Assembly: GCA_003345595.1 (NCBI GenBank)
Contig: PRDI01000058.1
Location: 23,961 to 87,960, forward strand
Direction: 5' to 3'
Source: Candidatus Thorarchaeota archaeon
GTDB taxonomy: Archaea > Asgardarchaeota > Thorarchaeia > Thorarchaeales > Thorarchaeaceae
DNA: 64,000 nt
Below, piece after piece: positions 5,760 through 57,728 of the stretch. Below the pieces are notes generated by a model that did no database searches, had not been told where the DNA came from, and worked only from the letters and a program-made list of their open reading frames with translations. Within the stretch, counting starts at the first letter, position 1. Every line of letters starts with the position of its first letter. A program made the translations under genes and the position numbers.

Positions 5760-6634
5760 TCTGTATTCAGTCCCCCAATCATGCTTCGGAAGGCCGAGTC
5801 ATGCTGCAAGAACCGTGAATCAAAGCGTGCCAGTTTCGCATGTGTCATCATTCAGGTGTTCTCCTAGTTCGACTTCGCGATCTCTCGGGGTGCGGCCCCC
5901 GCAATCACACTGCAGGGACCGCTGCTGAGAGAGTAGGTATGTTTAGCCGTCCATCGGTTACCATGGTTGTCGAGAGGCTCTGCTTCTTGCCGAGTGTCAG
6001 GGCTTCCAGCGGTTTCATCGAACCGGTCAGCCGGGAATCGGAAGAGTGCGCCGAGTCTACTCAACCATGTCACCTTGTTTTGGTTTGGACTGGTCACTTG
6101 ATATGCTACTGATGGTCTACAGTGCTCATTCAAGTGACCACTTGTGGTCACTCTAATACAAGTCGTGTGGTCAAGGTGACCTGCTGAAGAGGCTGGCTCG
6201 CCTTTGCGCCCCACGCGGTAGTTGTTGGAACAAACCATGCTCACTGCTTCGTTGTTCACAGCCTCTACCTCATGGTGGCATAATGGTTTGGTGCTGACAC
6301 CATTTAAATACTACACTGTTGACGCAATAAACCATTGATGATGGGACCTTCGCACACAGGTGCACATCCAACGGACTAGGATTGACGAACTGAAGGTGAG
6401 ATACCTGCTGAGTCCTTGCGTCGGGAATACTTAACGATAAAGCGACACCGTAGCCTTTCACAAGAATTTCATCATTGGTACCAATAAAAAGCGCAGCCAC
6501 ATCATGGGGTCACGTGTTGAGGTCGCTTCATGTTACCGGTCACGCAGGCAGGGGTGTAGGTGTGCGACAGTCAAAGATATTACGAAGCTGATTCAGAACC
6601 TGCAGTATCAACTAACGACAGGAGACAGGTCAGG

Positions 6635-7516
6635 ATGGATATCAAGAAGATTGCCGTGCTTGGCGCAGGCCAGATGGGCAACGGTATAGCTCATGTCTGT
6701 GCTCAGTCAGGCTATGAAGTCAAGATGCGAGATATAGAGCAACAGTTCCTCGACAAGGGCCTTGCAACGATAAAGGGAAACCTAGACCGCATGCTGAAGA
6801 AGAGCAAGATTACTCAGGTGGACGCGGATGCAACATTGCGTCGCATAAAGTGCGTTCTCGACCTTAAGGAGGCCGTGAAGGACGCTGATCTGGTCATTGA
6901 GGCGATTCCCGAAATAGTCAAGCTGAAGTTGGACACTTGGAAGGACGTGGACGCTGCCGCCCCTGCCAGCGCCATATTGGCGTCGAACACTTCGAGCATC
7001 AGTATCACCCAAATGGCGGCTGTAACAAAGCGGCCTCAGAAGTTCATAGGCATGCACTTCTTCAACCCAGTGCCTGTCATGGGACTTGTTGAAATCATTA
7101 AAGGGCAAGCCACCGACGACGCAACTGTCGATGTGATAAAGGCTGTCGCGACTAAGGTCGGCAAGCAGACAGTCGTTGTTAAGGAAGCGCCAGGGTTCGC
7201 AGTCAATCGATTGCTGGTGCCCGCTTTGAATGAGGCTGTCTTTGCGATTCAGGAAGGCATCACGACAGTTGAAGACATGGACCTAGCCATCAAGCTCGGG
7301 TTGAACTGGCCAATGGGTCCGCTGACACTTCTTGACTTCGTGGGTCTAGACACGGCATTGTACATCGCCGATTATTTCGTGGACGAGTTCAAGGACAGCA
7401 AGTACAGGGCACCTGCCTTGTTGCGCAAGATGGTGCGTGCAGGATGGCTGGGCAGGAAGTCCGGAAGGGGCTTCTATGACTACTCAACCAATCCTCCCAA
7501 GCCGGGTAGGTTCTAA
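6635..7516 (+). CDS. hbd: 3-hydroxybutyryl/3-hydroxyacyl-CoA dehydrogenase
   Basis: GAGQMGNGIA, VIEAIPE, LASNTSSISI, GMHFFNP, PGFAVNRL, PMGPLTLLDFVGLD and GRKSGRGFYDY. Start MDIKK at 6635. Confidence 0.93.
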   Translation: MDIKKIAVLGAGQMGNGIAHVCAQSGYEVKMRDIEQQFLDKGLATIKGNLDRMLKKSKITQVDADATLRRIKCVLDLKEAVKDADLVIEAIPEIVKLKLDTWKDVDAAAPASAILASNTSSISITQMAAVTKRPQKFIGMHFFNPVPVMGLVEIIKGQATDDATVDVIKAVATKVGKQTVVVKEAPGFAVNRLLVPALNEAVFAIQEGITTVEDMDLAIKLGLNWPMGPLTLLDFVGLDTALYIADYFVDEFKDSKYRAPALLRKMVRAGWLGRKSGRGFYDYSTNPPKPGRF

Positions 7517-8141: not shown

Positions 8142-11100
8142 TCATTTCGTGAGCTCTTCTTCTCTGAGCTTCTTCTTGAAGAGTTTCATTGCCACAGTCA
8201 GAGGCAGCTCATCTCTGAATTCTACCCATTTTGGCACGGCATATGGCTTCACTCTCTCCTTCAGGTATTCGATGATATCCTGCTCTGAAACTTTACCTCT
8301 ATATTCAGGTTTCAGCTGGACAAAAGCCTTCACCCTTTCACTTCCAGGTCTTTCAGAATCAGGAACCCCTATCACACCTGCAACATCGACGGCTTCGTGT
8401 GTGTGAAGGATGTCATCAATGACCCTACTGTACACCTTGTTACCCGAAACATTGATCATGTCTTTTAGCCGGTCTACTATTCTGAAGTAGCCGTCACTAT
8501 CCATCTCGACAATATCGCCCATAGGCAACCATCCGCCCTCTCTTAGTCCACTTCCAGGAGTTGGGAAGTACCCCTTCATGACCTGCGGTCCACGGATCCA
8601 GATTTCTCCTCGCTCGTTAAGCGGAAGCTCTTTTCCAGTTTCGGGATCGACGATTTTGACCTCTGTATCAGGTATGGGAATGCCGATGCCCCTCTTTGTT
8701 TCGGTCATGAAACCAGTGACCTTCGAGAGCGCTGACACGTTGATTGTTACGATTGCTGATGACTCTGTTGCGCCATAGCCTTCGCCCATGGGCACTCCCG
8801 TCTTCTTCTCAAACTCCGCAGCAAGATCGGCAGGGAGTGCCGCTGCACCTGAGTAATAGAATATCTGTCCCTTCTTCAGGTCCATCTTGCTCAGCATTGT
8901 ATAGTGAGCTGGGACTGCGAATACAACGAAAGGACGTTGCTTGTTGATTATATCTGCAATCCTCGAGATGTCACGCGGGTCAACCAGGAATATCTTCATA
9001 CCCCATGACACGCATGCATGCACGGCCCAATGGCCGTACGCGTGGAAGATGGGCACACATATCAGACCTGCGCTCTTTCCGATGATTCCCTCCTTCAGAG
9101 GGTCCATCATCCATTGAATTGACTGTATGACGGCACTTGTCAGATTGTAGTGTGTCAACAAGGTCCCTTTTGGAAGCCCTGTGGTGCCTCCCGTGAAGGG
9201 CAGCAGGGCGATATCCTCCTTCGGGTAGATTTCGACAACACCTTCATGCGGCTCGTGCTGTTCTATCAAATCATTGAGAAGGAAGTAGTTGTCATCATCA
9301 ATCTGCTCTGTGTCAGGATATTCATAGTCTGGGAATACCCTTGTAGGGGTGTAGATAACGATTCTCACGCTCGTTTCGGGTTTGACTCGATTGATTCTTT
9401 CAAGACGTCTGGATGAGCATACCACGATCTCAGCTCTACTCTCTTTGAGTTCATACAGCAAATCGTCGTCCTTGTGCATAATGCTTAGAGGTACATGAAT
9501 CGCTCCAATCTTCATTGCTGCATAGTCAGCTATTATGAATTCAGGACATGATGGAAGTACAGTGGCAATTGCGTCCCCCTTCTTCACACCAAGGGCTACG
9601 AAAGCTGATGCAAGCTTGTCAACCTTCATTTTCAGCTCATGATATGTCAAATGCTCATCCAAGTACTCACATGCTTCAATATCAGGGAAATTCGTTGCAG
9701 AGTCCTCTAGAAACTTGTAGACATTTATCTCAGGATACGGAGCCATCGAATGCTTGAGTTTGAAAGGACCAATTTGGTAGCCACTCAACCACGGCTTGTC
9801 ACCAAAGATTTCTGCCGATGTTCTAGATACTGCTGATGCCATCTCCTTTTCAGAAGTAGCCATCTGTTTTGTTTGTGCCCCCGTAGTTCCTCTCCCAAGA
9901 TCCCCATATTCAGGGATCGAATCAGCAACCCATGCAAGATCAAGTTCCTTTAGTTTTTCTCTCGAGGGTCTTCCTTGATGATCCCATCCGCGATACTTGT
10001 AGTATGCATCTAGGAGAACATCCAGTTTCACAACATGCCCCTTCGCTGGCCCTTCGGGCATTGGATCCTCTAGTAGTCGCGGAGGTAGACTGTCATCTCT
10101 TCGTCCAAACCCCTCCCTCAAAATGTATGCCCTCTCCAGGTTATAGATTCTCTCACCTGTCTTGCGAAAGTCATCTGCAGAGAACTCATAGCCCATCAGT
10201 GTGGAAATCAGTTTCGCCCAGTCTTCGGCAGTGAGCACCATCCCCATGAACTTGCAGCCACCAATGGCGTCAAAGATGCCGAATGCATCCTCGAAGTTCT
10301 TGACGACTAATGCTATCTCTGGGATTTCCATTAGTGGATCGCCCACATCCGCATTCTCAACGATCATGAAAGGCATGGAGAGAAAAGCAGGTCCCTCAAT
10401 ATACGCTGTTATGTGATCTCCGCCTCGATTCGCAACAGCATAGGCAAGTCCCGTTATCTTGGCCGCTCTGCTGTCATAACCCGGGAGCTCTAGTCCCTTC
10501 ACATGCATCGCGAATCTCTCAGACCCATTACCTAGTTTCTCAGCCATCCTCATGGTCCCTTCAGCAAGGAGATTCCCTATTCCCTCACGTTTTCCAATCT
10601 TGTGAACAATGTCAACGATAAGTTGCGCATTTCCCCAGGAGAAGTCCATGCCACCAATGTCGTCGTCTTTCAGGATGCCGCGTTGTCTGCATTCCATGGC
10701 AAAGCCAACGCTATTGCCCGCAGAGATTGTGTCAATGCCATACTCATTGCACAGGAAGTGCGCGAGGGTGATGGCTTCTAGGCTGTCCACACCGCACATA
10801 GTCCCAAATGAGCTAATAGTTTCGTATTCCGGGCCCTCTCCCTTGCTCTTGAAAGGTCCCTCCTTGATTTCGGCAATCCTCCCGCAATGGATGGGACAAG
10901 CAAAGCAGGGCTTTCGTCTTACTAGGATGCTATCATTGATTGCCTGCCCGTTGATTTTTTCTGCGTTCTCAAAAACGCCGGTCTGCCAGTTTCTGGTCGG
11001 GATGCCTCCCTTGACATTGACCAGGTCAACCATTGTAGCTGTGCCATAAACCTCTAGGGTCATCTTCAGAAGGCTTTGATTCACCCAGTCGAACCTTTGC

Positions 11101-11777
11101 TTTGCCTCCTGTCTGTATGCGTCTGGGTCTGCAATGGCGATTTCCAGAGTCCCCTTTGATGCTATTGCCTTCAGATTCTTTGAGCCCATGACCGCGCCAA
11201 CGCCGCACCGTCCCGCTGCGCGACCCCAGTTCTCCTCATCGCAGTCGTTCATGATTGCAGCGTACTTTACCAGATTCTCCCCTGCGATACCTATGCAAGC
11301 GACATTGAATTTGGGTCCGTGCCTCTCTCTGAGGATTCTAGTGGTTTCGGAGGTGTTCTTTCCCCATATCTTCCCTGCATCGAACAGCTCCGCCTTTCCA
11401 TCTTCAGTGAGGAGGTAGACCGGACTTGGCGCTCTTCCTTCGAATATTGCACCATCAAAGCCGGAGCGTTTGAAATCTCTCCCCCAGAATCCTGCGGAAT
11501 TTGCCTGGCCCCATCCATTCGTGAGGGGTGACTTTGTTACCACACTGTATCGTCCTGTGCTGGGCGAACTGGTGCCTGTAAGAGGGCCGGTCATGAAGAT
11601 GAGCTTGTTCTCAGGACCAAGGGGGTCAATGCCTTTTTCAGTTTCCTCAAGTAGGATCTTGGTAGCTAGTCCGGCACCACCGAGGTATTTTCGTAAGGTT
11701 TCTTCATCAGGGAATTCCTCCGTTATTGTAGATGTAGTCAGATTGATGCGCAGGATCTTTCCCATGTAGCCATACAT
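8142..11777 (-). CDS. Fused aldehyde:ferredoxin oxidoreductase (AOR, W/Mo-pterin) and AMP-forming long-chain acyl-CoA ligase
   Basis: N-terminal ~620 aa: GRAAGRCGVGAVMGSKNLKA, CFACPIHC, GPEYET, YGIDTIS, RGGDH, DAIGGC. C-terminal ~570 aa: FTGGTTGLPKG, EGYGATE, GWLPMGD, VDRLKDMINVSG, LPLTVAMK. Confidence 0.9.
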   Translation of the reverse strand: MYGYMGKILRINLTTSTITEEFPDEETLRKYLGGAGLATKILLEETEKGIDPLGPENKLIFMTGPLTGTSSPSTGRYSVVTKSPLTNGWGQANSAGFWGRDFKRSGFDGAIFEGRAPSPVYLLTEDGKAELFDAGKIWGKNTSETTRILRERHGPKFNVACIGIAGENLVKYAAIMNDCDEENWGRAAGRCGVGAVMGSKNLKAIASKGTLEIAIADPDAYRQEAKQRFDWVNQSLLKMTLEVYGTATMVDLVNVKGGIPTRNWQTGVFENAEKINGQAINDSILVRRKPCFACPIHCGRIAEIKEGPFKSKGEGPEYETISSFGTMCGVDSLEAITLAHFLCNEYGIDTISAGNSVGFAMECRQRGILKDDDIGGMDFSWGNAQLIVDIVHKIGKREGIGNLLAEGTMRMAEKLGNGSERFAMHVKGLELPGYDSRAAKITGLAYAVANRGGDHITAYIEGPAFLSMPFMIVENADVGDPLMEIPEIALVVKNFEDAFGIFDAIGGCKFMGMVLTAEDWAKLISTLMGYEFSADDFRKTGERIYNLERAYILREGFGRRDDSLPPRLLEDPMPEGPAKGHVVKLDVLLDAYYKYRGWDHQGRPSREKLKELDLAWVADSIPEYGDLGRGTTGAQTKQMATSEKEMASAVSRTSAEIFGDKPWLSGYQIGPFKLKHSMAPYPEINVYKFLEDSATNFPDIEACEYLDEHLTYHELKMKVDKLASAFVALGVKKGDAIATVLPSCPEFIIADYAAMKIGAIHVPLSIMHKDDDLLYELKESRAEIVVCSSRRLERINRVKPETSVRIVIYTPTRVFPDYEYPDTEQIDDDNYFLLNDLIEQHEPHEGVVEIYPKEDIALLPFTGGTTGLPKGTLLTHYNLTSAVIQSIQWMMDPLKEGIIGKSAGLICVPIFHAYGHWAVHACVSWGMKIFLVDPRDISRIADIINKQRPFVVFAVPAHYTMLSKMDLKKGQIFYYSGAAALPADLAAEFEKKTGVPMGEGYGATESSAIVTINVSALSKVTGFMTETKRGIGIPIPDTEVKIVDPETGKELPLNERGEIWIRGPQVMKGYFPTPGSGLREGGWLPMGDIVEMDSDGYFRIVDRLKDMINVSGNKVYSRVIDDILHTHEAVDVAGVIGVPDSERPGSERVKAFVQLKPEYRGKVSEQDIIEYLKERVKPYAVPKWVEFRDELPLTVAMKLFKKKLREEELTK

Positions 11778-11862: not shown

Positions 11863-12147
11863 ATGAAGGTGAAAGTGAAATTCTTCGCGCATCTCAGTGA
11901 GCTCACAGGTAAGAAACCAGTATTCGAGGTCGATGTTGAGGAGGGCGCCACCGTTTCCATGCTCTTGGACAGTCTACTCGTCGACCGGAGGATCAGGGAT
12001 GCCCTGCTGGACGAGAACCAAGAGATCAGGTCCAATATAACTGTCCTCAAGAATGGCAGAGAGATAAAACTCCTGGCGGGAATGGAAACCAAGCTGAGTC
12101 ATGGTGACGAGCTAGCTGTGTTTCCCATGCTTGTCGGAGGTCGATAA
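11863..12147 (+). CDS. MoaD/SAMP ubiquitin-like (beta-grasp) protein
   Basis: MKVKVKFFAHL...VLKNGREI...LSHGDELAVFPMLVGGR, divergent from an AOR gene. Confidence 0.88.
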   Translation: MKVKVKFFAHLSELTGKKPVFEVDVEEGATVSMLLDSLLVDRRIRDALLDENQEIRSNITVLKNGREIKLLAGMETKLSHGDELAVFPMLVGGR

Positions 12148-12262
12148 GTGGTGCATCGAATACCCTAGACCCCTTCAAGCTCAATTTATCAGTAGGACAT
12201 TCCTGTTACAAGAGCATTCAATCGAATTACGATGACCAGTGCTATTCGAAGGATTGATCACT

Positions 12263-12712
12263 ATGCCGAGATTCATGTCAGCTGAATGGCTGAATCTATA
12301 CAAGAATGCGCTCAACAGCAACGATGCCTATGCAAGGGCTGCTTCGTGGTGGACTGGCGACTTCATTTTCGTTGTCAGGGCAAGCGGCAAGTTGGACCAT
12401 GATATTTTTGCTTTCATCGGGTTGACTCACGGTAAGTGCACCGGTGTGAAGCCAATAAAGGGAGAAGACGAATACCAAGTTGTGAAACCTGGTGAGGGTG
12501 CGAGCAGTAAGGACAAGGTTGCCGTAGAGTATGTCTATGAGGCCAAGTATGATGCTTGGCTGAGAATCCTGAGAGGCGAGTTGGATCCTGTCCGCGGGCT
12601 TCTCAGCGGCCAAGCAAGAATCGTTGGAGATATGGCCAAGATTCTCAAGGCTACGGACGCTGCGAAGGAGCTAGTACGAACATCCACCCTGATCGACACG
12701 GAATTCTACTAA
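12263..12712 (+). CDS. SCP2 sterol/lipid-binding domain protein
   Basis: FMSAEW..Y...LN....Y...A..W.GDF and YDAWLRILRGELDPVRGLLSGQARIVGDMAKIL, a typical SCP2 pattern. Start ATG 12263. Confidence 0.8.
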   Translation: MPRFMSAEWLNLYKNALNSNDAYARAASWWTGDFIFVVRASGKLDHDIFAFIGLTHGKCTGVKPIKGEDEYQVVKPGEGASSKDKVAVEYVYEAKYDAWLRILRGELDPVRGLLSGQARIVGDMAKILKATDAAKELVRTSTLIDTEFY

Positions 12713-12732: not shown

Positions 12733-13143
12733 ATGGATGAAGCAGCGCGGGAAATCCTCTTCCATACATTCAAGGCCGTAATAGAAGATGTCATTGCTGA
12801 CAAGCGGAAGAATCCCAAGAACACCACGACTCTTGACGAATATCGAGCCAGGATAAACATAGGTCTGCATGTGGAAGAGGAATTCATATTGTGGGTGAAT
12901 CTTGTTGCTGAAGGCGGCAAGTATGTCGTCAACAAAGGAAAGCTTGATGACTACGATCTACAACTCATATCAGACCCCGAGGATATGATGTACTTCACTA
13001 ACAGGAAATACTCAACGCTGAAGATGATGTTCACAAAGAACAGATTCGGAGAGAGAAGGCTGCTTTTCAGTGGAGGAACGTCTGGCAGAAACTACGGGAA
13101 ACTGTTGAAGCTCCCCAAGGTGCTAGTCTTGGATGGCAAATAG
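12733..13143 (+). CDS. Hypothetical protein, probable SCP2-like fold
   Basis: Beta-rich core followed by YDLQLISDPEDMMYF...LKMMF...RLLFSG...KLLKL, resembling an SCP2 C-terminus. RBS GGTGA; co-oriented with the SCP2 gene. Confidence 0.55.
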   Translation: MDEAAREILFHTFKAVIEDVIADKRKNPKNTTTLDEYRARINIGLHVEEEFILWVNLVAEGGKYVVNKGKLDDYDLQLISDPEDMMYFTNRKYSTLKMMFTKNRFGERRLLFSGGTSGRNYGKLLKLPKVLVLDGK

Positions 13144-13345: not shown

Positions 13346-13590
13346 ATGGGAAGGTGGGGGACCTGTGGGCACATGCACAATGCTCACGTCAGGAACTGTT
13401 TACCTGCCGACGTGTCTGTCAGACTCCTGAAGAAGATGGGAGCGGACATCACGTTCGTCTGCGGATCAGACACTCATGTTACTCTTCTCCTGACTGTAAC
13501 AGAGGCCGCTGGTGTTAGTCACAGAGAACTCTATGTAGAGTACCACGAGCACTACCTGGAGATCGTAGCCAGTTTCCCAATCTTAATAGC
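13346..13590 (+). pseudogene. metG: Degenerate N-terminal fragment of methionyl-tRNA synthetase
   Basis: GHMHNAHVRNCLPADVSVRLLKKMGADITFVCGSDTHVT...GVSHRELYVEYHEHY matches the MetRS HIGH/ADxxxR/GSDxHG region with decayed motifs. Only about 80 codons. Confidence 0.75.
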
Positions 13591-13622
13591 AGTGTTGCAT
13601 CATGTCCGGTCATGTGGTGCAG

Positions 13623-14465
13623 ATGAGGTACGAAGAGAGCAGCTACACAGGATACGATGGCATGCAGATGTTCATGTCGGTATGGACTCCCGACGACGAA
13701 CGGCCCCGTGCTCTCATGGTAGCTATTCACGGGCTTGGAAGTCATGGGTCTGCTCTGACTAACGTCGGCGTCTATCTCAGTGAGCGGGGCATTGCAGTGT
13801 TCGCCCCTGACATGAGGGGCTTTGGTCACTATTCGGGACTGAAGGGGCACGTGATGAACTTCGATGAATACATCGAGGACATCGATAGCGTGGTGACTCA
13901 GGTCAAGATGATGCACCCGTCCAAGCTGACCTTCCTGTTTGGCCACTCGCTGGGGGGTCTTGAAGCGATAAGATATGTCACTACGTATCCCGGCGATGTC
14001 GATGGTCTGATTCTATCCTGCCCTGCGGTTTCTGAACATGTCGAGATCGGGAAGGCAACCAGAGTGGCGGGCTCATTCCTTTCACTACTAAACATTAAGC
14101 GATACTTCGGCTGGCCTACCCAGTTCCAGTACGCCTCACATGACCCAGACGTCGTTCAGGAGCATGAGAACGACGTGCTTAGGTTTGACAAGGTGACACC
14201 CCGACTTGGAATGTCTGCACTGAAAGCTACCCGCAAAGCGTTCGAGTCTGCATCCGGAATAGTGCTCCCAGTCCTTGTGCAGCAGGCGGGTGACGATGTC
14301 TTCGTTATACCTGAGAAGACCAAGTTGTTCTTCGACAGCATTGGTGGATGTGACAAGAGCTGGAAATTGTATGAGGGTCTCTATCACGAACTTCACAATG
14401 AAAATGCGAGGGAGCAGGTACTTGGCGACATGTACGCATGGCTTGAGAAGCGCCTGACGGGATAG
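13623..14465 (+). CDS. Alpha/beta hydrolase, lysophospholipase/monoacylglycerol lipase family
   Basis: HGLGSH, DMRGFG, GHSLGG nucleophile, AGDDVFV and YHELHNE. Start 13623 or 13602. Confidence 0.88.
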   Translation: MRYEESSYTGYDGMQMFMSVWTPDDERPRALMVAIHGLGSHGSALTNVGVYLSERGIAVFAPDMRGFGHYSGLKGHVMNFDEYIEDIDSVVTQVKMMHPSKLTFLFGHSLGGLEAIRYVTTYPGDVDGLILSCPAVSEHVEIGKATRVAGSFLSLLNIKRYFGWPTQFQYASHDPDVVQEHENDVLRFDKVTPRLGMSALKATRKAFESASGIVLPVLVQQAGDDVFVIPEKTKLFFDSIGGCDKSWKLYEGLYHELHNENAREQVLGDMYAWLEKRLTG

Positions 14466-23849: not shown

Positions 23850-23980
23850 CTACGAGTAAGTCACGGTCTGAATCCCTCATAAAAGCTACACGGCGTGGCA
23901 AAGAGAGCCAGGAACAGTGAGGGCCGGGTCGTGCCGCAGTCCAATAAGGGATAAGTGCATGCGTTGCTTGTCAGTGTCAC

Positions 23981-55934: not shown

Positions 55935-57728
55935 CTAGAATCCCTTGAACACCGCATCGATGTCTGCGTCTGTGACATCGAAAGTGACGTTGTGCGGCGG
56001 GAGTTTCTCAGTGCGGAAGAACTCAGGCAACCTGTCGTCGCGTTCAGTGAACCCTGCTCTCTGGTTGAAGCCGCGTTCGGCTTTCAGCACGGCCGTTCCG
56101 TACTCTGTGACATCAATCTTCTTGCCGAGGAAGGAATCAACAGTGTCAGTCATGGCCTTGAAGCCTGCGTCATCGTCCAGAACGCAGAATGCAACGAAGA
56201 GGCAGTATCCGCTGGAGTCGAGATAGGCAGTCGTAGATTGGAAGGCGCGTGAGAGGTCGGCCTTCTTGAGGTCTCTTGGATCAGTGACCTTGCCCTTGAT
56301 GCCGAGTATCTCAGCCGCTATGGTGTAGCCTGAGGTGTGGTCTGCTCCCATTGGGTTGGTCGCGTAGGTCACACCAATACCACGGATTGGTCTTGGGTCG
56401 TATGCAGGTAAGGACTGTCCCTTGACAACTGGAATCCGGGTGACTCCTAGCGCATGCCCAGTGGTTGACGCTCCTGAGCACACCAGCCTGCCAAGGTAGG
56501 ACTTCGGGTTGTACGCCTCCTTCAGAGCAGCAATAGCTGCCGGGCCATCACCGAACTTGATCATTCCAGCCTCCATGAGCATGGCCAGAGTGTTGCCGGT
56601 TTCAATCGTGTCCACTCCGAGGTCGTTGCAGAGCCTGTTGAGCTCGGCGACGTCTTTGAGGACGCTGATGCCCAGGTTAGTACCCAGAGCCCATACGGTC
56701 TCATATTCGAGGGGCGAAACCTGCAGTTTGCCTGTGTCTTCGTAGGGTACTGCGTTGGAGCATGCCATGACACAGCCAGGGTGACAGGCGTGACCATACG
56801 TGCCTTGTGCCTTGTCTCCATGCTTCGCCCTTGTCCTGTCAACAAGCTCATGAACCGCTTCTCCCGAGATCTTAGCTGCTCCTTCAAAGCGTCCTTCGTG
56901 GAAGGCTCTGGTTGGAAGGCCACCGGCTTCGTTCAGAATGTTCTGGAGCACATTCGTCCCGTAGTTCTTTAGGGCACCGAATGGCTTCCCCTTATCGTCC
57001 TTGAGTTTGCCTGTGATGGGGTGAGCGTCTAGTGACTTCACGAACGTCTTGCGCGCGGCGTCAAATCTGTCGTTCTCTTTGGCTGCAGGGACGGCACCAC
57101 CAGTGTCGTCACTCACAATGGCGACAACGTGTTTCGAGCCAAGCACCGCACCCAACCCGCCTCGGCCCGCGTACCTACCAGCATCCGTGTTCTCCACGTT
57201 ATTGCCAAAGACACCCGCAGCTTTCTGAAGGCGTTGGCCAGCAAGACCACAACCAATGATGCCTGGTTTCGATGGATACTCCTTCCAGATTCTGGCTATC
57301 AGGTCGTAGGTTCCGAGTCCAGCGTATTCGTTCTTCTTGACGATCTCGCACTTGTCCTTCCCGACAAGGAGGGTGTACCAGTCCTTGCTCGCTGCGGGGG
57401 GCGCGCCTTCAAGTATGAGACCCCGTACCCCGATGCGGGCGAGCCTGGTTCCAGTGAGTCCGCCAGCGTTAGCTTCTTTGATGCCGCTGGTCAGAGGGGA
57501 CTTTGCTCCTACGCTCACTCTACCAGACGAGGGTGCGTATGTTCCAGCAAGTAGACCCGGTGACACCACGAACTTGTTCCGTTCACGGAGCGGATGACAC
57601 ATGGGATCGACTTCGGTCGAAACAATATGTGAGGTGAAAGCTCTACCAGCCAGATGCTCCTGCTCTGGCTTGAGCTTCTCCCACTTGAATGTCAGGTCAG
57701 TCATGTTGACCCTTAGAACCTTGCTCAT
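55935..57728 (-). CDS. Aldehyde:ferredoxin oxidoreductase family protein
   Basis: KSPLT, AGRGGLGAVLGSK, CHPGCVMAC, LEYET, LGVDTIE, GADHT and DSSGYCLF. Confidence 0.92.
   Translation of the reverse strand: MSKVLRVNMTDLTFKWEKLKPEQEHLAGRAFTSHIVSTEVDPMCHPLRERNKFVVSPGLLAGTYAPSSGRVSVGAKSPLTSGIKEANAGGLTGTRLARIGVRGLILEGAPPAASKDWYTLLVGKDKCEIVKKNEYAGLGTYDLIARIWKEYPSKPGIIGCGLAGQRLQKAAGVFGNNVENTDAGRYAGRGGLGAVLGSKHVVAIVSDDTGGAVPAAKENDRFDAARKTFVKSLDAHPITGKLKDDKGKPFGALKNYGTNVLQNILNEAGGLPTRAFHEGRFEGAAKISGEAVHELVDRTRAKHGDKAQGTYGHACHPGCVMACSNAVPYEDTGKLQVSPLEYETVWALGTNLGISVLKDVAELNRLCNDLGVDTIETGNTLAMLMEAGMIKFGDGPAAIAALKEAYNPKSYLGRLVCSGASTTGHALGVTRIPVVKGQSLPAYDPRPIRGIGVTYATNPMGADHTSGYTIAAEILGIKGKVTDPRDLKKADLSRAFQSTTAYLDSSGYCLFVAFCVLDDDAGFKAMTDTVDSFLGKKIDVTEYGTAVLKAERGFNQRAGFTERDDRLPEFFRTEKLPPHNVTFDVTDADIDAVFKGF

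Follow-up and report, generated by a model that had tools for sequence, protein, structure and literature searches.

The fused gene and its domains

The 64,000-nt stretch of DNA analysed here (the window; positions 23,961 to 87,960 of the forward strand of contig PRDI01000058.1, assembly GCA_003345595.1) comes from a Thorarchaeota-type Asgard archaeon of wetland sediment and carries a gene in which an aldehyde:ferredoxin oxidoreductase (AOR) is joined through a linker to an acyl-CoA ligase of the ANL family (Table 1). Genes for a ThiS/MoaD-like small protein and for two SCP2-fold proteins, SCP2a and SCP2b, lie upstream of the fused gene and are divergent from it. An earlier reading of the bare DNA sequence (the original prediction) had described one uninterrupted open reading frame (ORF) of 1211 codons with both enzymes complete, which the ORF and Pfam analyses confirm; the strand, which had not been stated, is minus. 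Each of the four Pfam domains spans essentially its whole profile (AFOR_N, positions 1-199 of 199; AFOR_C, 16-385 of 385), and the Pfam search of the fused protein returned nothing besides these four AOR and ANL domains.

Table 1. Features of the fused gene and of its surroundings, in positions of the window
Feature	Position	Strand	Remarks
Fused AOR-linker-ANL gene (P0001)	8142..11777	minus	single ORF, 1211 aa, ATG start
AFOR_N domain	11148..11762	minus	residues 6-210; Pfam E 5e-77
AFOR_C domains 2 and 3	9936..11069	minus	residues 237-614; Pfam E 4e-138
Linker	9795..9920	minus	residues 620-661; S/T/G/A/E/K-rich, poorly conserved
AMP-binding (ANL) N-terminal domain	8565..9710	minus	residues 690-1071; Pfam E 2e-83
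AMP-binding_C domain	8193..8420	minus	residues 1120-1195; Pfam E 2e-13
ThiS/MoaD-like small protein	11863..12147	plus	94 aa, ends GGR; Pfam ThiS 42.4 bits, cut-off 22.5
SCP2a, SCP2-fold carrier	12263..12712	plus	149 aa from ATG; ORF opens with GTG at 12239
SCP2b, second SCP2-fold protein	12733..13143	plus	136 aa; Asgard loci only
3-hydroxyacyl-CoA dehydrogenase	6635..7516	plus	convergent with fused gene; ORF opens with GTG at 6560, likely start ATG at 6635
Hydrolase_4 (monoacylglycerol-lipase-like) alpha/beta hydrolase	13602..14465	plus	local context

By sequence comparison the N-terminal half is a pterin/[4Fe-4S] enzyme of the AOR-proper type. Residues 1-615 align with residues 1-602 of Pyrococcus furiosus AOR (1AOR; E 5.5e-164), and the AOR-proper enzymes 9MQX, 9G7J and 8C0Z are likewise near relatives. 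The match to the class II benzoyl-CoA reductase BamB (4z3w) covers residues 2-433 only (E 2e-66), and the assignment to BamB-like aryl-CoA reductases was rejected. The AFOR_C part retains the four cysteines of the [4Fe-4S] cluster (C291, C294, C298 and C508; C288, C291, C295 and C494 in P. furiosus), Tyr318/Glu319 (312/313), His455 (His448) and the second pterin motif at D503..C508, the first pterin motif at N344..D349 departing in its opening residue, while AFOR_N carries Arg76, Asn93 and Arg186/Ala187, the equivalents of the P. furiosus pterin phosphate and Mg ligands, with Arg186 corresponding to Arg182. The fused protein differs from the P. furiosus enzyme in a 5-residue insert ahead of Arg186 and in about 590 additional C-terminal residues, which make up the linker and the ligase. 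The iron that bridges the P. furiosus dimer is held by Glu332 and His383, and since these positions align to Leu and Val in the fused protein, the bridging site is probably absent. Tungsten or molybdenum as the metal and ferredoxin as the electron acceptor are presumed.

The C-terminal half has Archaeoglobus fulgidus FadD-1 as its nearest solved structure (3g7s; E 3e-60) and long-chain fatty-acid-CoA ligases as its best family models. Like FadD-1 and the FadD-type long- and medium-chain synthetases, it contains both ANL domains and all core motifs, including the P-loop (T862-K870) and A5 Glu1005 in the N-terminal domain, the A8 hinge (D1102-R-L-K-D) just before AMP-binding_C and the catalytic A10 Lys1198 just past it, and it opens with the FadD-like N-terminus DKPWL...GPFKL, of which DKPWL starts at residue 660; unlike them, it sits fused behind an AOR. 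No carrier-protein domain or gene was found in the fused protein or nearby in the window, an absence that would favour CoA as the acyl acceptor. Carboxylic acid reductases (ANL-PCP-reductase) likewise join ANL adenylation to acid/aldehyde interconversion in one chain, but their domain order and direction (acid to aldehyde) are the opposite, and they need a phosphopantetheine carrier and an NADPH reductase domain. The fused protein has neither, and a reductase of this kind is ruled out by its domain content, which consists only of AOR and ANL domains with the AOR half first.

Conservation of residues was assessed from the alignment to 1AOR and from an alignment of 32 relatives, both fused and split. 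The cluster cysteines, Y318/E319, H455, R76, N93, R186 and the second pterin motif are invariant in all 32 aligned relatives, as are the P-loop, E1005, D1088 (A7), D1102/R1103/K1105 and K1198 of the ANL half. Every AOR and ANL motif quoted in the original prediction was found in the protein, and both halves look catalytically competent by these residues.

The fusion in other genomes and in unassembled reads

The same four-domain architecture is present in more than 40 protein clusters of 1204-1226 aa from independent assemblies, at identities from 91% down to 62%, as retrieved by a word-indexed search of 5.8 billion proteins in which the sources label the fused clusters Thorarchaeota and Hodarchaeota. 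When 301 genomes of the phylum were searched in six frames, at least 16 full-length uninterrupted fused copies were recovered from other genomes. Genera that share the fusion number at least five, with identities of 78-91%. The linker is also crossed by Logan unitigs of two separate wetland studies, one (X1, record 5; 9727-10319) with no differences and the other (X3, record 29; 9741-10314) with one substitution, at 10027, and both pass the region 9800-9950 free of indels and stops; a further run (X2) barely covers the gene. Because the architecture recurs in these clusters, in whole genes elsewhere and in unitigs from two studies, the fusion is genuine and not an assembly artefact.

The joining linker was correctly foreseen, at a length of about 35 aa; taken as the stretch between the last AOR-homologous residue and the ligase motif DKPWL, it is about 42 aa long (residues 620-661) and exceeds the spacing between homology blocks in split relatives by about 31-37 aa. 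Its two in-frame Met codons, at 9863 (M639) and 9842 (M646), are present as described and had raised the suspicion that the fusion is recent or that translation starts internally, a concern largely answered by the spread over at least five genera, by linker lengths among Thorarchaeota fused forms that vary by whole codons with the frame kept, and by the lack of conservation of these codons, which two fused loci (L010 and L014) do without altogether. It is accordingly very improbable that the fusion is merely apparent, either through an assembly or frameshift artefact or because the ligase is made separately from M639 or M646. Such a reading could draw on the two ATGs, on the start of the ligase 5-12 residues ahead of DKPWL in split relatives and on the fact that neither a junction peptide nor a full-length transcript was seen, but it is opposed by the uninterrupted ORF of the protein clusters, the stop-free fused genes of other genomes, the linker-spanning unitigs, the whole-codon length differences, the non-conserved Met codons and a second, independent fusion in Hodarchaeota.

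The genome that contains the window (2.73 Mb, 83% complete) holds about a dozen AOR genes, one of which alone is fused, and no split second copy of the AOR-ligase pair was found in this 83% complete genome. One Thorarchaeota bin (G203) carries two fused copies, at 48-3680 of contig C142 and 23598-27224 of contig C40, which are 86% and 80% identical to the fused protein of the window; these could reflect duplication after fusion or a mixed bin (6% contamination).

Two fusions from a split ancestor

Related Asgard genomes carry the AOR and the ligase as separate, adjacent and co-directional genes. In these split loci the AOR ends with ...EWVIDQIY followed by a stop, and the ligase starts 41-196 nt further on (1042 nt in one locus). 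A tree was built from the concatenated AOR and ligase sequences of 55 pairs, with the root set by 14 split pairs from bacteria. It places the Asgard pairs in one clade (support 100) and the fused forms in two, one of Thorarchaeota (14 rows, support 100) and one of Hodarchaeota (2 rows, support 99), both nested within split forms. A single fused clade is rejected by the approximately unbiased (AU) test with a delta lnL of 506 and a p-AU of 0.0004, a value to be read with the caveat that the constrained group was named after the first tree had been seen. The Thorarchaeota linker is S/T/E/K-rich and poorly conserved, with no conserved Met, and the Hodarchaeota linker is longer and unrelated to it in sequence. 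Since the fused clades nest separately among split forms and the AU test rejects their union, two independent fusions from a split ancestor, in Thorarchaeota and in Hodarchaeota, are well supported. No further fused cluster was found among the top 150 matches to 50%-identity representatives, a search in which a shorter protein evidently stands for the fused cluster and which neither adds nor excludes distant fusions.

In 13 (L021-L033) of the 20 split Asgard loci the AOR and the ligase share the same reading frame, a count that comes from close kin and is not a statistic. In three genomes a single in-frame TGA alone parts the two genes (e.g., L022 in G093 and L024 in G266), and these pairs are one substitution or read-through event short of a fused protein.

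The AOR-ligase pair across anaerobes

The gene pair extends well beyond the Asgard archaea. Outside that group the closest AOR, found in Deltaproteobacteria bins, has 60% identity, and a scan of species genomes with it as the query gave 80 named loci. Gene order was counted at the 64 loci where the AOR shares 50% identity or more with that of the fused gene and is followed by 1.7 kb or more of sequence. In 63 of them (57 split, 6 fused) the ligase follows immediately on the same strand; three more distant AORs (45% identity or less) are without a downstream ligase. Besides Asgard archaea, the loci represent at least five bacterial phyla (Thermodesulfobacteriota, Chloroflexota, Bacillota, Actinomycetota and Spirochaetota) and one bin labelled Pseudomonadota, the bacterial hosts including Desulfobacterales, Desulfatiglandales, Syntrophaceae, Desulfarculales, Dehalococcoidia, Anaerolineae, Syntrophomonadaceae (Bacillota), Actinomycetota and a Spirochaetales bin, and at many of the bacterial loci there is no gap between AOR and ligase, or they overlap. 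Because 63 of the 64 loci have the ligase directly downstream, this AOR clade is, on gene order, defined by its ligase partner, and the pair itself is much older and more widespread than the fusion. The proposal that the product of the AOR half is the substrate of the ANL half is strongly backed by this gene order and by the two independent fusions.

Conserved neighbours of the pair

To name the neighbours, all ORFs of 112 fetched loci were clustered and assigned by Pfam; the counts below are of loci and not of independent genomes, as some genomes were fetched twice. A homologue of SCP2a stands beside the pair in 91 of the 112 loci, 36 of them bacterial, a ThiS/MoaD-like gene in 43, and SCP2b in 31. 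Genes for alcohol and acyl-CoA metabolism recur at lower frequency, namely an iron-type alcohol dehydrogenase (Fe-ADH) in 17 loci, a GMC flavoprotein oxidoreductase in 10 bacterial loci, where it is directly upstream of SCP2-AOR-ligase, an acyl-CoA dehydrogenase in 8, and, immediately behind the ligase in split operons of Thorarchaeota, a MaoC hydratase in 6. Genes for class-III aminotransferases are present at 10 loci. The SCP2 pair and the MoaD-like gene, the most telling context for function, had been missed in the original prediction.

The SCP2a assignment is supported by Pfam SCP2 matches to 19 of 20 orthologues and by an AlphaFold2 model (pLDDT 92) whose Foldseek matches include 2cx7 and 1wfr (E 1e-11), the closest being Thermus thermophilus SCP2 (2cx7; TM 0.76-0.89). 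For SCP2b the Pfam search gave no match, and the top Foldseek matches of its model (pLDDT 85) are all SCP2 proteins at TM 0.5-0.6. As a comparison of the two by hhalign found no profile similarity, their predicted relationship is one of fold alone. The predicted complex of the AOR half with SCP2a (score 0.02, mark 0.32) says nothing either way. An SCP2-fold carrier is likewise tied to acyl-CoA metabolism in the eukaryotic peroxisomal SCPx thiolase and MFE-2, whose SCP2-like domain (1ikt) is among the Foldseek matches; unlike in those proteins, the SCP2 proteins here are separate small genes beside a predicted anaerobic, ferredoxin-linked aldehyde oxidation.

The MoaD-like protein is likely a maturation factor for the pterin cofactor, by analogy with the AOR operon of Aromatoleum aromaticum, in which the MoaD-like aorD and aorE are proposed factors for W-cofactor maturation (PMC6365974). 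About 36 of its 43 orthologues end in GG, and the copy in the window ends in GGR.

The lipase-like hydrolase, an MFS transporter gene that also flanks the fused gene, and the 3-hydroxyacyl-CoA dehydrogenase did not turn up as neighbours of the pair elsewhere, in loci whose flanks are short, and are weak context. A 138-aa ORF (13346-13762, plus strand) overlaps the start of the hydrolase gene and may be a gene fragment, as only the first ~80 residues of the class I Met-tRNA-synthetase-type family PF09334 are matched (E 5e-11). Among Desulfobacterota, the pair is followed directly at five loci (L058, L066, L072, L100 and L108) by a gene of the HGD-D family and by BcrAD/BadFG-type ATPase genes, one or two in number. 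These resemble 2-hydroxyacyl-CoA dehydratase or ATP-dependent aryl-CoA reductase and hint at a different fate of the acyl-CoA in those bacteria.

Proposed function

The reading favoured here, with a probability of roughly 65%, is that the fused protein is a bifunctional enzyme for hydrophobic aliphatic substrates, which would oxidise an aldehyde to the acid with reduction of ferredoxin and then convert the acid to its CoA thioester at the expense of ATP. In the AOR half, aldehyde, water and two oxidised ferredoxins would yield the free acid and two reduced ferredoxins, and the FadD-like ANL half would adenylate this acid and thioesterify it to CoA (acid + ATP + CoA -> acyl-CoA + AMP + PPi). 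The fusion would have arisen from an old and widespread AOR-ANL operon whose products became joined via a flexible linker. The wider route would run from alcohol to aldehyde, acid, acyl-CoA and beta-oxidation, with entry through Fe-ADH or GMC enzymes and with SCP2 proteins solubilising the substrate or an intermediate. Because SCP2 carriers, alcohol dehydrogenases and beta-oxidation genes are kept beside the pair, the gene context suggests poorly soluble aliphatic substrates, either fatty or isoprenoid. The direction of flux and the substrate class are inferred, as would be any direct hand-over of the acid.

The original prediction further held that the enzyme channels its intermediate and that ATP consumption pulls the reversible AOR step. 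Channelling is conjectural, and the pull is not supported. The acid/aldehyde couple lies at about -580 mV and ferredoxin at about -400 to -500 mV, so ferredoxin-linked aldehyde oxidation is already exergonic and no pull is needed. The gain from fusion is more likely kinetic, in that it would keep an insoluble, membrane-active acid from escaping. A functional parallel is offered by A. aromaticum AorABC together with the AOR and phenylacetate-CoA ligase steps of anaerobic phenylalanine degradation, in which the acid made by a tungsten AOR is likewise activated by a CoA ligase; MoaD-like maturation genes are found in the AOR operon, as beside the fused gene (PMC6365974). There, however, a three-subunit AOR works with NAD or viologen, the ligase is separate and unlinked, and SCP2 carriers are absent.

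Several observations weigh against this reading. The first pterin motif opens with Asn344 in place of P. furiosus Asp338 in 32 of 32 sequences, the second motif (DxxGL(C/D)x) being intact. The RNA of one metatranscriptome (X10) consists of short pieces, with one good contig of 272 nt, and covers the AOR half only, which is too little to claim expression of the fused gene. The combined action of an AOR and an ANL ligase costs two ATP equivalents, a cost that CoA-acylating aldehyde dehydrogenases avoid. The ANL half scores under the cut-off of every curated NCBIfam model (best PRK06187, 357.8 bits against 476), so its subfamily is an uncurated one, marked out by the AOR with which it is paired. 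The substrate class is read from gene context, and two features point elsewhere: the next-best solved relatives of the ANL half are aromatic-acid ligases (4-coumarate and feruloyl-CoA ligases), and the HGD-D and BcrAD ATPase genes of 4-5 Desulfobacterota loci would suit aromatic or 2-hydroxy-acid substrates.

These last two features are also the ground for supposing that the same two-step enzyme acts on aromatic or amino-acid-derived aldehydes, such as phenylacetaldehyde or those of the benzaldehyde type, in place of lipid aldehydes. The parallel with the separate AOR and phenylacetate-CoA ligase steps of phenylalanine degradation and the aminotransferase genes of 10 loci would fit such substrates, as would the preference of the P. 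furiosus and A. aromaticum AORs for amino-acid-derived and aromatic aldehydes (PMC6365974 and established knowledge). The SCP2 carriers at 91 of 112 loci, the FadD-type best matches of the ligase and the neighbouring MaoC, acyl-CoA dehydrogenase and hydroxyacyl-CoA dehydrogenase genes, which fit aliphatic beta-oxidation, make aromatic substrates unlikely. A still less probable alternative concerns the direction of flux, with a reductive, fermentative pathway in which the reversed ligase makes ATP (acyl-CoA + AMP + PPi -> acid + ATP), the AOR half draws on reduced ferredoxin to turn the acid into the aldehyde, and a neighbouring alcohol dehydrogenase forms the alcohol. AORs are reversible and in acetogens run towards the aldehyde, from which alcohol is then made; Syntrophus aciditrophicus reportedly forms ATP by a reverse ligase reaction from acyl-CoA, AMP and PPi; and both the frequency of Fe-ADH genes beside the pair and the presence of Syntrophaceae and Syntrophomonadaceae among its hosts are compatible with this direction. 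Reverse operation of ANL enzymes is, however, rare and needs high PPi, the GMC flavoprotein directly upstream of SCP2-AOR-ANL in 10 bacterial loci belongs to a family of alcohol oxidisers, and a FadD-like ligase with acyl-CoA dehydrogenase, MaoC and hydroxyacyl-CoA dehydrogenase is the usual arrangement for entry into beta-oxidation.

Implications of the fusion

Both halves belong to known families, and public annotation already lists fused proteins under generic names. The original prediction knew of no characterised enzyme with the AOR-ANL architecture, and literature searches found none, nor any paper on an AOR-ligase fusion or an AOR-SCP2-ligase module; a search on Thorarchaeota fatty-acid metabolism returned no paper with a title or abstract on the subject. 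On a more tentative reading, somewhat short of even odds, the fusion is a Rosetta-stone marker of a widespread anaerobic module, in which an alcohol dehydrogenase, an SCP2-assisted pterin AOR and a FadD-like ligase would lead into beta-oxidation. If this is true, the module allows anaerobes of six or more phyla to pass hydrophobic alcohols and aldehydes from the breakdown of wax esters, plasmalogens, isoprenoids or alkanes/alkenes into beta-oxidation while harvesting low-potential ferredoxin electrons, and Asgard archaea have welded the two enzymes together twice since direct hand-over of an insoluble acid between active sites is advantageous. What most AOR-family enzymes do physiologically is still unclear, and the module would provide the first defined role for one AOR clade, as the fixed ligase partner and the helper genes turn an AOR of unclear role into a concrete pathway. 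It would account for the activation of hydrophobic aldehydes by strict anaerobes, Asgard archaea among them, with a gain of reduced ferredoxin and no need for NAD-dependent dehydrogenases. The single-chain form is a ready-made object for the study of substrate hand-over between tungsten and adenylating enzymes, and could be of use in biocatalysis, where AORs and CoA ligases are both employed in acid/aldehyde chemistry.

Other AOR genes and fusions

A different AOR fusion combines AFOR_N and AFOR_C with PF00215, the OMP-decarboxylase/3-hexulose-6-phosphate-synthase family, and is represented in the word-indexed protein search by P0132 (832 aa), P0198 (992 aa) and some 60 clusters more. Bins of Methanomethylicia, Nezhaarchaeales, Hodarchaeales, Thermoprotei and Aenigm-/Nanohaloarchaeota commonly carry this fusion, which might couple formaldehyde release by the reverse ribulose monophosphate (RuMP) reaction to ferredoxin-linked oxidation; a limited search of the literature found no paper on it. 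The window contains a second, divergent AOR-family gene (55935-57728, minus strand, 597 aa) with AFOR_N and AFOR_C domains. Elsewhere in the same genome, an AOR gene on contig C108 adjoins an Fe-ADH gene, and another on contig C16 lies near a further ThiS-like gene.

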